Positions 37,729-43,257 of a stretch of 64,000 nucleotides of DNA are shown here, in pieces. The DNA is taken from positions 35,887-99,886 of the forward strand of contig JAKQTR010000016.1 of the NCBI GenBank assembly GCA_029562975.1. The letters run 5' to 3'. Numbering within the stretch: the stretch's first letter is position 1; each line of letters starts with the position of its first letter. The stretch comes from Acidobacteriota bacterium (GTDB taxonomy: Bacteria > Acidobacteriota > Vicinamibacteria > Vicinamibacterales > JAKQTR01). Both the position numbers and the translations under genes were made by a program. The notes under the pieces were generated by a model, which was not told the DNA's origin, did no database searches, and saw nothing but the letters and a program-made list of their open reading frames with translations.

Positions 37729-38391
37729 ATGGACACTGACGCACTCTCCCCCCTGTTGTCTGCCCTGCGCGACGCGGTGCTCGACGGCGACGCGCGCGGG
37801 GCGGCTTCGGCCACCGAGCGCGCCCTCGGGCAGGGCGTCGATCCGCAGCGGCTGGTGGATGGCGCGCTCATCCCGGCGATGGACGAGGCTGGGCGCCGCT
37901 TCGAGAACGGCGAGTTCTTCGTGCCGGAACTGCTGGTGTCGGCGCGCGCGCTGAAAGCGTCGCAGGCGATCGTGACGCCGCTGCTGGCGCAGCGCGGCGG
38001 CGTCGTCGCCCGCGGGCGCGTCGCCATCGGCACCGTCAAGGGCGACATGCACGACATCGGCAAGAACCTCGTCGTGGCGCTCCTGCAGGGCGGCGGCTTC
38101 GACGTCGTCGATCTCGGGACCGACGTGCCTCCGACGCGCTTCGTGTCCGCCGTCACGAACGACCGCGTCGACATCGTCGGTCTGTCGGCGCTGCTGACGA
38201 CGACCATGCTCCAGATGAAGGCGACGCTGAAGGCCATGGAGACCGCGGGCGTCCGCGGGTCGGTGAAGGTGATCGTCGGCGGGGCGCCCGTGACCCAGCG
38301 CTTCGCCGACGAAATCGGGGCGGACGGCTACGCGGACAACGCCGCCGCGGCCCTCGCACTGGCCCGCCGCCTGATGGCGTCCGGCGCCTGA
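37729..38391 (+). CDS. Corrinoid (B12-binding) protein of methyltransferase systems (MtmC/MtbC/MtaC-like)
   Basis: Track ORF of 220 aa with an N-terminal helical cap. The lower-ligand motif D-x-H-x-x-G appears as GDMHDIGKN, S-x-L as GLSALLTTT and G-G as IVGGAP. Confidence 0.9.
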   Translation: MDTDALSPLLSALRDAVLDGDARGAASATERALGQGVDPQRLVDGALIPAMDEAGRRFENGEFFVPELLVSARALKASQAIVTPLLAQRGGVVARGRVAIGTVKGDMHDIGKNLVVALLQGGGFDVVDLGTDVPPTRFVSAVTNDRVDIVGLSALLTTTMLQMKATLKAMETAGVRGSVKVIVGGAPVTQRFADEIGADGYADNAAAALALARRLMASGA

Positions 38392-38401
38392 GGTCCCCCG
38401 C

Positions 38402-39493
38402 GTGGCGACTCGCACCGTCATGACGAGCCGGGAGCGCGTCCTCGCCGCGATGCGGCGCCAGGAGACCGACCGCCCGCCGTTCGACCTGTCCTTCGGCATC
38501 GCGACGGCGCAGCTTGCGTCGATCAGGGCCCGCACGGGGGCGGACGACCCCTGGGACTACTTCGGCGCCGACACGCGCATGATCTGGCCGGGCCCCACCC
38601 GGCTCGACACCGACTTCTCCAGGTATCTCGGGCGCCTGCCTCGAGGCTCGACAGTGGACGAATGGGGCCTGGGGCACGTGCCGACCGCGAGCACCGACGC
38701 CGACCACGCCCACCTCGAGGGGTTCCGCCACCCGCTGGAGGAGGCGGAGTCGCTCGCCGACATCGCGCAGTACCCGCTGCCCGACGTGGACGCCGCCTAC
38801 CGCTACGAGAGCGTGCGCGCCGCAGTCGAGGCGGTTCACCGGCGGGGCCTCGCGGCCATGGCCATGCTGGAGTGCACGATTTTCGAGCGAGCGTGGTACC
38901 TGCGCGGCATGGAGCGCCTCCTGCTCGACTTCTCGGACGGAAGCGCCATGGCGACGGTGCTGCTCGACCGCATCACCGCTCTGCGCATCGGGCAGGCCAG
39001 GCACTACGCGGCCTCGGGCGCCGACGTCATTTGCTACGGCGACGACGTCGGCACGCAGCGAGGCCTCCTCATGAGCGCGGCCATGTGGCGCACGTGGCTG
39101 AAACCGCGCCTGGCCGCAACCATCGCCGCGGCGCGCGACGTCCGGCCGGACGTGCTCGTCTTCTACCACAGCGACGGCAACGTGGAGGCCCTCATCCCCG
39201 ATCTCATCGACATCGGAGTCGACATCCTGAACCCCGTGCAGCCGGAATGCCTGGATGCCGCCGCGCTCAAGCGGCAGTACGGCAGCCGGCTTTCCTTCTG
39301 GGGCACCATCGGCACGCAGTCCACGCTCCCGTTCGGCAGCCCGGACGACGTGCGGCGGGAGGTCCGGACGCGCATCGAGACGGTCGGTGCCGGCGGCGGG
39401 CTGTTCCTCGCGCCGACCCACGTCATCGAGCCGGAGGTGCCCTTCGAGAACCTCGTGGCGTTTGTCGAGGCGGTGACCGGCGAACGCGGGTAA
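38402..39493 (+). CDS. Uroporphyrinogen decarboxylase (URO-D) family protein, MtaA/CmuA-like methyltransferase candidate
   Basis: Track ORF of 363 aa with a GTG start 8 nt after the corrinoid-protein stop. SRERVLAAMRRQETDRPP, DDVGTQRGLLMS, FYHSDGNV, ILNPVQPE and the overall layout are URO-D/MT2-like. Confidence 0.8.
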   Translation: MATRTVMTSRERVLAAMRRQETDRPPFDLSFGIATAQLASIRARTGADDPWDYFGADTRMIWPGPTRLDTDFSRYLGRLPRGSTVDEWGLGHVPTASTDADHAHLEGFRHPLEEAESLADIAQYPLPDVDAAYRYESVRAAVEAVHRRGLAAMAMLECTIFERAWYLRGMERLLLDFSDGSAMATVLLDRITALRIGQARHYAASGADVICYGDDVGTQRGLLMSAAMWRTWLKPRLAATIAAARDVRPDVLVFYHSDGNVEALIPDLIDIGVDILNPVQPECLDAAALKRQYGSRLSFWGTIGTQSTLPFGSPDDVRREVRTRIETVGAGGGLFLAPTHVIEPEVPFENLVAFVEAVTGERG

Positions 39494-42017: not shown

Positions 42018-42069
42018 GCCCCTGCGGAGGGACCGGACGACGGCGCGAGGGGATCGCAGGGAGACGCGC

Positions 42070-43257
42070 ATGAACGCACGCATCCGGCCAGCCGGCCTTC
42101 ACACCACCGCGGTGCACGCGGGCGAGGCGCCAGACCCGGCCACCGGCGCCCTGGCCACGCCCATCCACCTGTCCACGGCGTTCCACCTGGGCACCGCCGA
42201 GCGCGGCGCGGCCGTTTTCTCGGGCCGGGAGGAAGCCTACGTGTACTCGCGGTGGGCCAATCCGACGGTGAGCGCCTTCGAGCGCAAGGCCGCCGCCCTC
42301 GAGGGCGCCGAGGCGGCAATCGCGAGCGCCAGCGGCATGGCGGCCATCGCGTCGGCCATCCTCACCAGCGTGCAGAGCGGCGACCACATCGTGTCGGCGA
42401 CGGCGATCTACCCGAGCACCTACCACCTGATGGCCACGCAGCTGGCGTCGATGGGCGTCCGCACGACGTTCGTGGACGCCACGGACCCGGGCAACGTGGC
42501 GCGAGCGATCGGGCCATCCACGAAGCTCGTGTATCTGGAGACACCCGGCAACCCCACGCTCGCGCTCTGCGACCTCGAGGCAATCGGGAGGATCGCCCGT
42601 TCGGCCGGTCTCGCCACGATTTGCGACAACACCTTCGCGTCGCCGGTGAACCAGCGCCCCCTCGAACTGGGGATCGACACGGTCGTGCACAGCGCAACGA
42701 AGTACTTCTGCGGCCACGGCGATGCCGTGGGCGGGCTGGTCCTGGGGCGTGCGGCGTTCATCGATCGGTGCCTGAAGGAGCCGCTCCGGTACTACGGCGG
42801 CATCATGGCGCCGTTCAGCGCGTACCTCATGCTGCGGGGCGCGGCGACGATGCCGCTGAGGGTCATGCGCCAGAACTCGAGCGCCCTGCGCATCGCGGAG
42901 TGGCTGGAGCGCCACCGGGCCGTCGCGCGGGTGCTCTACCCCGGCCTGCCGTCGCATCCGCAGCACGCGCTGGCGAAGCGGCAGATGCCGGGCGGCTTCG
43001 GCGGCATCGTGTGCTTCGATCTGGCGGGCGGCGTGGAGGCCGGCGCCCGGCTCATGAACGCCGTGCGCGTGTGCTCGCTCGCGACGAGCCTCGGCGACGC
43101 GCGCACGCTCATCTCGCATCCGGCGTCCACGACGCACAGCGTCGTGCCGCCGGAGGCCCGCCTCGCGCAGGGCGTGACCGACGGCCTCGTGCGGCTCTCG
43201 GTGGGCATCGAAGACGTGGAGGACCTCGTCGCGGACCTCGATGCCGGCCTGCGCTGA
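42070..43257 (+). CDS. Cys/Met-metabolism PLP enzyme (methionine gamma-lyase / cystathionine gamma-synthase / O-acylhomoserine sulfhydrylase family)
   Basis: Inner ATG at 42070 follows AGGGAG. YSRWANPTV, ASGMAAI, the PLP-lysine context HSATKYFCGHGD and SLGDARTLISHPASTTH. Confidence 0.9.
   Translation: MNARIRPAGLHTTAVHAGEAPDPATGALATPIHLSTAFHLGTAERGAAVFSGREEAYVYSRWANPTVSAFERKAAALEGAEAAIASASGMAAIASAILTSVQSGDHIVSATAIYPSTYHLMATQLASMGVRTTFVDATDPGNVARAIGPSTKLVYLETPGNPTLALCDLEAIGRIARSAGLATICDNTFASPVNQRPLELGIDTVVHSATKYFCGHGDAVGGLVLGRAAFIDRCLKEPLRYYGGIMAPFSAYLMLRGAATMPLRVMRQNSSALRIAEWLERHRAVARVLYPGLPSHPQHALAKRQMPGGFGGIVCFDLAGGVEAGARLMNAVRVCSLATSLGDARTLISHPASTTHSVVPPEARLAQGVTDGLVRLSVGIEDVEDLVADLDAGLR

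Follow-up and report, generated by a model that had tools for sequence, protein, structure and literature searches.

A corrinoid protein and a UroD-superfamily protein of Vicinamibacterales as the possible methyl-donor half of a modular corrinoid methyl-transfer system

Three-component methyltransferase systems that rely on corrinoids belong to the textbook chemistry of methanogens and acetogens. The systems closest to the locus described here are those of Roseobacters: the split methionine synthase (split MetH) of Phaeobacter inhibens, assigned by genetics, consists of a corrinoid protein, a homocysteine module, a RamA-like protein and DUF1638 (PMC5764234), and in MtgBCDE of Ruegeria pomeroyi a donor methyltransferase shares one corrinoid protein with folate and homocysteine modules, an arrangement recently shown to couple osmolyte demethylation to methionine synthesis in aerobes (PMC12478193). 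A second group, the O-demethylases and dehalogenases among the UroD-superfamily methyltransferases I (MT I; MtvB, OdmB, VdmB, MtoB and CdmB), is known from strict anaerobes and archaea, where the substrates are aromatic ethers or haloalkanes (PMC13222342; PMC10418091). The subject of this study is a pair of adjacent genes, for a corrinoid protein and a UroD-superfamily protein, in a 64-kb stretch of DNA (hereafter the window; ∼71% G+C) from a member of the Vicinamibacterales (Acidobacteriota). With a probability of roughly 0.55, the two proteins are the donor side of a modular system for corrinoid-dependent methyl transfer that resembles split MetH and MtgBCDE. An initial annotation of the window held corrinoid methyltransferase systems to be poorly explored outside anaerobes; the Ruegeria work leaves this only partly true (PMC12478193), though the UroD-fold system described here is indeed uncharacterised.

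As spurious long open reading frames (ORFs) are plentiful at this G+C content, genes were called by third-position GC (GC3). The coding frames are 37729–38391 (corrinoid protein), 38402–39493 (UroD-like protein), 39495–42017 (a penicillin-amidase-family acylase) and 42070–43257 (a pyridoxal-phosphate (PLP) enzyme), all on the plus strand, which together with the Pfam matches confirms the four head-to-tail genes of the initial annotation; the motifs it quoted for the corrinoid protein, acylase and PLP enzyme were all located in the translations. The spacings of 10, 1 and 52 nt that it gave are those between the longest ORFs, although the starts of two genes are ambiguous. The UroD-like protein begins in homologues at the ATG at 38420, which would leave 28 nt after the corrinoid protein gene, and the acylase has its start at 39516 in public gene calls (833 aa), 22 nt after the UroD-like gene. 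The PLP gene start was set at 42070 because the extension upstream to 41899 shows non-coding composition. Identical proteins in the same layout were found in 11 independent contigs from several samples, including GCA_035408625.1 and several other assemblies, and the UroD-like protein is 100% identical to that of a Vicinamibacterales (Acidobacteriota) metagenome-assembled genome.

The corrinoid protein (37729–38391, plus strand) possesses a B12 cap domain (PF02607, B12-binding_2) and a Rossmann B12-binding domain (PF02310), with the motifs DMHDIG (residues 106–111), SALL (153–156) and GG (184–185). This is the DxHxxG, SxL and GG architecture of methyltransferase-cognate corrinoid proteins, in agreement with the earlier assignment as B12-binding, and the DxHxxG motif indicates that B12 would be bound in the His-on/base-off mode. 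The protein scores below the cutoffs of TIGR02370 (187.0 vs. 215.3) and of the MtgC-type model NF047996 (MtgC_2; 206 vs. 370), and its best solved relative is 1Y80 (200 bits), followed by MttC. In pairwise comparison with relatives, the ratio of nonsynonymous to synonymous substitution rates (dN/dS) is 0.20–0.28 for the corrinoid protein and 0.19 for the UroD-like protein.

The UroD-like protein (38402–39493, or from 38420; plus strand) is assigned to an uncharacterised clade of UroD-superfamily corrinoid methyltransferases, with a match of 91.6 bits to PF01208. Its AlphaFold2 model (pLDDT 90.7) has a UroD-type TIM-barrel fold, for which the top Foldseek matches are MtaA (E 1.8e-14) and UroD structures with TM scores of 0.62–0.70. 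By E-value the closest solved structure is MtaA 4AY7, at just 21% identity, and a family profile of the clade found nothing beyond MtaA in the PDB and matched no solved MT I. The sole NCBIfam matches are to MtaA/CmuA-family models, at 59.7 vs. a cutoff of 235.4 for TIGR01463 and 49.6 vs. 400 for MtaA_Meth. Uroporphyrinogen decarboxylase proper (HemE) was rejected, with no HemE NCBIfam model matching at E ≤ 0.01 and UroDs in the PDB scoring 13–16 bits. The family is large (1037 clusters at 50% identity, E ≤ 1e-30), and the clade that bears the His-x-Asp/Cys/His signature described below, with around 1000 such clusters, extends through Acidobacteriota, Chloroflexota, Armatimonadota, Verrucomicrobiota, Planctomycetota and Clostridia.

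Within the UroD superfamily, a His-Cys-Cys ligand set marks the S/Se-methyltransferases, and carboxylate substitutions mark the O-methyltransferases (Kountz and Balskus, PMC10418091). In a HMMER alignment to 4AY7, H256-S-D258 lies opposite H-I-C and T339-H340 opposite G-C, meaning that the His-Cys-Cys zinc ligands of MtaA are His-Asp-His in the UroD-like protein, and invariantly so across the family. Residues H256, D258, C283 and H340 are invariant in 94 of 94 family members at ≥43% identity, and H256-x-D258 and H340, perhaps also with C283, constitute a putative metal site. The replaced cysteines had been overlooked in the initial annotation. Because the ligand set departs from the His-Cys-Cys rule and the scores are below cutoff, the protein falls outside the MtaA family and a thiol-methylating role is unlikely, leaving the label "MtaA-like" that was first applied to it weakly founded. 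Replacement of the cysteines by carboxylate or non-thiol residues (Asp258, His340) is what is found in the O-demethylase-type MT I (PMC10418091), as is a cognate corrinoid protein gene directly upstream, which here is separated by 10–28 nt in the window and overlaps by 4 nt in relatives. The clustering of MT I genes with a methyl-tetrahydrofolate (methyl-H4folate) MT II and an activating enzyme is not reproduced, as the window lacks pterin-binding and RACo genes. Membership of the type 1 mlp (S/Se-methyl) clusters, which occur in obligate anaerobes only and have His-Cys-Cys, was rejected on the wrong ligand set, far lower identity and aerobic lineage (PMC10418091).

The surroundings of the pair were compared across 180 related loci, drawn from GTDB species representatives, from metagenome contigs and by look-up of exact proteins, with neighbours scored by tblastn and Pfam; percentages given for these loci are identities to the window UroD-like protein. 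A corrinoid protein gene lies near the UroD-like gene in most loci at ≥56%, and this co-location, with the 4-nt overlap in relatives, upholds the proposal that the two genes are a genuine pair. At 76–85% (L003, L006–L008, L088–L090, L102, L103, L105 and L109) the whole region is syntenic, in the order tRNA_edit, a ∼412-aa protein, DUF72 (minus strand), permease, corrinoid protein, UroD-like protein, acylase, PLP enzyme, a 256–280-aa protein (minus strand) and a GuaA-like protein. At 64–72%, the permease, corrinoid protein and UroD-like genes are together in the P0037 contig, L091, L092 and L094, the corrinoid protein and UroD-like genes stand alone in L004, and the UroD-like gene stands by itself in L093. 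An M81/MlrC-like peptidase gene found upstream in the window (33086–34609) also lies beside this lone orthologue (L093, 26–1372), which suggests that L093 represents a related lineage that has lost the permease and the corrinoid protein.

Stand-alone homocysteine S-methyltransferase (PF02574), DUF1638 and RACo modules adjoin the orthologues at a number of these loci (L001, L009, L013, L014, L018, L019, L087 and L107), where the PF02574 protein matches the homocysteine domain of MetH and BHMT, and the RACo protein matches the AcsV/RamA activases. At 57–63% (17 loci, from Thermoflexales, Armatimonadota, Chthonomonadales and other Acidobacteriota), DUF1638 is immediately 5' of the orthologue in 11, a corrinoid protein is present in 9, PF02574 in 8 and RACo in 5, and extra UroD paralogues are often present. 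Locus L087 (64%), with Aminotran_5, permease, corrinoid protein, PF02574 and UroD-like genes, bridges the permease and PF02574 types; the PLP enzyme directly 5' of its permease (3596–4792) is class-V aminotransferase/kynureninase-like and itself follows a GH38 mannosidase and an ABC permease, and L002 has a comparable GH38 and rhamnose-catabolism context. A MetH-like pterin-binding module is found among the related loci in just two, L014 (4761–5432, beside PF02574, DUF1638 and the UroD gene) and L168 (beside a corrinoid protein, ∼5.3 kb 3' of the match), which look like full split-MetH sets with a UroD-type methyltransferase in addition. Unbiased clustering of the neighbouring ORFs at 87 loci revealed no further universally conserved partner, and a search with the stand-alone PF02574 protein, a member of a huge and conserved family, gave no Vicinamibacterales name among its best 120 matches.

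Clusters with up to seven UroD paralogues were observed in L001 (10001–20216), and also in L010, L013, L023, L034, L046, L049 and L071, with two proteins lacking Pfam domains (289 and 383 aa) interspersed among them. Within such clusters the orthologue of the window protein always has H-x-D...C...H and the paralogues have H-x-C...H, which suggests that different substrate chemistries may be served inside one cluster.

A donor role is proposed for the UroD-fold enzyme because the partner set of its orthologues matches that of the Phaeobacter split MetH and Ruegeria MtgBCDE. We infer that the enzyme would demethylate a small polar substrate, probably amino-acid-like, in which the methyl is more likely to be O- or N-linked than a thioether. 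The hard-ligand metal site (His256/Asp258/His340, perhaps Cys283) would assist methyl transfer to the corrinoid Co(I), and the resulting methyl-Co(III) would be unloaded by a separate module, which in orthologous loci may be the stand-alone PF02574 homocysteine S-methyltransferase, yielding methionine; homocysteine would likewise be the acceptor in the window organism. Folate is a possible additional acceptor where a pterin module exists, and a RACo/RamA-type activase and DUF1638 would keep the cofactor reduced. The very polar set of invariant residues and the permease type in related loci fit an amino-acid-like or sugar-derived substrate. The ancestral operon of the lineage probably comprised the permease, the corrinoid protein and then the methyltransferase, of which the window population has deleted the permease and kept the other two genes intact, with any unloading and reactivation modules, if present at all, lying outside the window.

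Like the Roseobacter systems, the present one occurs in aerobic bacteria, has a free-standing MtgC/MtbC-type corrinoid protein that would serve separate methyltransferase modules and, at orthologous loci, has PF02574, DUF1638 and RamA/RACo, with a pterin module in L014. It differs in that the donor is UroD-fold rather than MttB-family (MtgB) or pterin-binding, that an APC amino-acid permease is found at the related loci in place of betaine transporters, that the corrinoid protein is under the MtgC cutoff, and that all accessory modules are absent from the window. With the UroD-superfamily MT I it shares the UroD TIM barrel beside its own corrinoid gene, the replacement of the thiol-type zinc cysteines by harder or non-coordinating residues, and the occurrence of several paralogues per cluster, as in L001. 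By description, it differs from these in having no adjacent methyl-H4folate MT II, and in its very polar invariant residues and its association with amino-acid or sugar transport. The coenzyme M (CoM) methyltransferases MtaA, MtbA and MtsA are alike in supplying the closest solved structure and in having a small corrinoid protein as partner, and unlike in identity, bit score, the His-Asp-His ligand set and the lack of CoM metabolism here. The overall logic thus appears to be that of known modular corrinoid methyltransferases, and what would be new, to judge from the sequences, is a UroD clade in the donor position, its distinct metal signature and its homocysteine-side partner.

The permease has been lost from the window itself. 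In every other close relative an intact permease gene lies 5' of the corrinoid protein gene and overlaps it by 11 nt (TIGR00911, 224 bits; FrlA, 176 bits), whereas the window has a 465-bp gap between DUF72 and the corrinoid protein gene that keeps the intergenic region shared by the relatives. A decayed remnant of this LAT/FrlA-like APC amino-acid permease, overlooked in the initial annotation, was located by tblastn and DNA alignment at approximately 37421–37655 on the plus strand. The permease of L003 matches 37421–37585 and 37584–37655 in different frames, the stub corresponding to about residues 1–78 (∼230 bp) with frameshifts and small deletions and the other ∼1.1 kb being deleted; aligned to L003, L088 and L007, the stub DNA is 67% identical with indels, and the homology stops after it. 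The layout without a permease is shared by the 11 independent contigs, so the deletion is real and fixed, and an assembly artefact was rejected. Elsewhere, the same permease type lies directly 5' of the UroD gene with no corrinoid gene between them in L021 (8595–11044; Ignavibacteriota) and in L104 (1–1513; a short metagenome contig). An aligned block of the DUF72/permease intergenic region conserved in the window, L003, L088 and L007 includes the motif CATGGTAGGCTACGC (37364–37378), which may be a promoter or operator of the operon.

Several points weigh against the proposed donor role. The unloading methyltransferase, the activase and DUF1638 are all missing from the window: Pfam scans of essentially all GC3-supported window ORFs returned no MttB, MtaB, pterin-binding, PF02574, DUF1638 or RACo, and tblastn of the window with E. 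coli MetH modules, RACo, PF02574 and DUF1638 as queries gave no match, which also bears out the initial statement that no other corrinoid-methyltransferase component is present. The corrinoid link is firm just for the subgroup at ≥56%; members at ≤55% mostly have no corrinoid gene nearby, with one inside the flank (7–10 kb) in only 4 of 138 loci, and typically lie beside GH4, AraC regulators and CUT1 sugar ABC transporters. Loss of the permease may mean that the module is idle or uses another importer. The putative metal site is read from an alignment, and no characterised orthologue of the UroD-like protein was found in the PDB, in NCBIfam or in the literature searched.

A broader proposal is more tentative. 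Rather speculatively, the His-x-Asp/Cys/His clade may represent a corrinoid MT I class of its own that passes methyl groups from imported non-aromatic nutrients (methylated amino acids or O-methyl sugars) via a free corrinoid protein directly to homocysteine, for nutrient-driven, folate-independent methionine synthesis in aerobic soil bacteria. The members of this clade with GH4/AraC/CUT1 contexts (L022, L025, L027, L051, L061, L085 and ∼130 others at ≤55%) include many from gut and rumen Clostridia.

The foremost alternative, for which there is a modest chance, is an order-specific operon that includes the acylase, in which an extracytoplasmic Ntn hydrolase would remove the acyl group (succinyl- or glutaryl-type) from a methylated, N-acylated amino compound, the permease would import the product and the corrinoid/UroD pair would demethylate it, the PLP enzyme not being involved. 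The acylase (39495–42017, alternative start 39516; plus strand) matches PF01804 (Penicil_amidase) at 747.7 bits across profile positions 1–674 of 675, with an alpha-spacer-beta precursor layout, and in its GGGS/NNW sequence Ser305 coincides in alignment with the first residue of solved beta chains and is thereby identified as the nucleophile. It shares these features with D-succinylase, glutaryl-7-aminocephalosporanic acid (glutaryl-7-ACA) acylase and penicillin G acylase, and is unlike them in its N-terminal hydrophobic segment, LLLTVLVAIAASAALLYW, a predicted membrane anchor; the description of the protein as an anchored Ntn hydrolase therefore stands. Assignment as an N-acyl-homoserine lactone (AHL) acylase, suggested at the same time, was rejected on scores, the protein reaching 57.4 bits vs. 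a cutoff of 950 for PvdQ (NF051460) and 37–49 bits with PvdQ chains, far below the 291 bits with its best solved relative, D-succinylase 7EBY, which is followed by glutaryl-7-ACA acylase. The predicted anchor, the cleavage of N-succinyl-D-amino acids and glutaryl amides by the nearest solved relatives and the amino-acid type of the permease all suit such an operon, as does the position of the acylase, which lies 1–22 nt 3' of the UroD-like gene on the same strand in every locus at ≥76% with sufficient flank, and which may be co-transcribed with the pair. These loci are, however, all close relatives with whole-region synteny, in which adjacency may simply be inherited, and no acylase follows the pair at any locus at ≤72%. 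The window, moreover, has the acylase and no permease, which breaks the proposed chain. The acylase is a lineage-specific neighbour and not a conserved component of the system.

It is improbable that the UroD-like protein is an MtaA-type methyltransferase 2 moving methyl from the methyl-corrinoid to homocysteine or another thiol, as the initial annotation had it. In its favour are the MtaA/CmuA-family enzymes that are the best solved and NCBIfam relatives, and the nearby sulfur-amino-acid PLP enzyme. The score is far under the family cutoff, however, both zinc-ligand cysteines are invariantly Asp and His against the His-Cys-Cys rule (PMC10418091), and the orthologous loci already hold a dedicated homocysteine-methylating module in PF02574.

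Somewhat less likely again is that the module is a decaying relic in the window lineage, with the pair orphaned and non-functional after loss of the permease. The frameshifted permease stub, the lack of partner modules in the window and the lone UroD-like gene of L093 are what would be expected of a relic. Both ORFs are nevertheless intact with all family-invariant residues, pairwise dN/dS is around 0.2, 11 contigs from several samples have one identical, fixed arrangement, and another APC permease is encoded in the window at 24532–25935.

The initial annotation had further combined the four genes in a pathway in which a homoserine(lactone) or amino-acid moiety is freed by the acylase and then converted within sulfur amino-acid metabolism by the PLP enzyme and corrinoid methyl transfer. 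This is very unlikely, although it accommodates the tight four-gene spacing of the window and L003, and the homocysteine methyltransferase of the orthologues gives a thematic overlap with methionine metabolism. The PLP enzyme (42070–43257, plus strand; PF01053 (Cys_Met_Meta_PP), 445 bits) is, as was stated, of the gamma family, with the motif SATKYFCGHGD at residues 208–218 and K211 as the PLP lysine, and is nearest to methionine gamma-lyase (MGL), resembling the C. freundii and P. putida type in this motif and in a full-length match of 434 bits to the C. freundii enzyme. It differs in scoring 436.3 vs. the cutoff of 549.7 for TIGR01328, and is under every NCBIfam equivalog cutoff. The position of the active-site Cys of MGL (C115 in C. 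freundii, C116 in P. putida) is Ser (YG[C]T to YPST), and a confident MGL assignment was rejected on these two grounds.

Conservation of the linkage in relatives had been set beforehand as the test of a four-gene functional unit, and on this the unit fails. The acylase follows the pair in all loci at ≥76% with enough flank and in none at ≤72%, neither the acylase nor the PLP gene was found in the ∼165 more distant loci (≤72%), and the linkage is confined to one order. An opposite-strand SSF transporter gene splits the acylase and PLP genes in L006, L088 and L089, and an identical insertion can be deduced from the PLP offsets in L007, L008 and L109, so that, with this gene intervening in most close relatives, the 52-nt junction is special to the window and L003. 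Since the flanking tRNA_edit, DUF72 and GuaA-like genes are also syntenic, the adjacency of the four genes is attributed to inherited synteny; the PLP gene belongs to the syntenic surroundings rather than to a conserved operon, and both it and the acylase would be neighbours inherited within the Vicinamibacterales. With the dissimilarity of the acylase to AHL acylases and the missing MGL cysteine, the acylase/PLP route is left unsupported, whilst a link to methionine remains plausible through the PF02574 genes beside orthologues. There is barely any likelihood that the UroD-like protein is a non-corrinoid enzyme, such as a decarboxylase or other enzyme acting on a sugar or amino-acid derivative, with the corrinoid protein incidental, as the lack of a nearby corrinoid protein for most members at ≤55%, which lie in carbohydrate loci, is set against a corrinoid gene translationally coupled in relatives, orthologues lying among DUF1638, PF02574 and RACo genes, and a corrinoid methyltransferase as the closest solved structure by E-value.

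Around the four genes, GC3 supports a DUF72 gene (36262–37263, minus strand) divergent from the corrinoid protein gene, a conserved hypothetical gene (43284–44126, minus strand; 256–280 aa in relatives) that converges on the PLP gene and whose only match is a faint one to GDSL-lipase (E 0.009), and a GuaA-like gene (44162–45982, plus strand). The last encodes a GMP-synthase-like protein of 606 aa, conserved in relatives, with an NCBIfam match at residues 6–459, a C-terminal domain at 523–605 and a ∼60-residue insert. At 34846–36186 a 446-aa protein with no Pfam domain has a Lys/Ala-rich stretch and weak TolA and histone-H1-like matches, and relatives have a ∼412–422-aa gene without Pfam match at the same position. 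Further away are a carbohydrate-oxidation-type cluster (9183–21084), with two xylose-isomerase-like TIM barrels, GFO/IDH/MocA oxidoreductases, a 3-keto-disaccharide hydrolase, a GH84 NAGidase, a GATase1-like protein and an SSF transporter, and a Memo-AMMECR1 fusion adjoining a radical SAM protein, an AmmeMemoRadiSam-type pair (60407–63145, minus strand). A promoter and terminator consensus scan of 37200–43400 found nothing, and, being based on a sigma-70 consensus in a 71% GC genome, it is silent on operon boundaries. A regulatory RNA search of the window and seven related loci gave no match at gathering score, the sole weak match in the upstream gap being a chance-level small RNA.

The corrinoid/UroD pair is a worthwhile, if unproven, lead. 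For annotation, it cautions that the tight spacing of four genes reflects inherited synteny and not a pathway. The locus points to a large uncharacterised UroD-fold branch of corrinoid methyl transfer in soil and freshwater heterotrophs, with its own metal-site signature and with an amino-acid permease, a stand-alone homocysteine module, DUF1638 and RACo as partners. If the proposed methyl flow is true, this would represent a new sink for methylated organic matter and, in phyla that are abundant but poorly cultured, a way of making methionine that depends on B12 and not on folate, and would provide a functional context for DUF1638 and for many of the proteins currently annotated as "uroporphyrinogen decarboxylase family protein".

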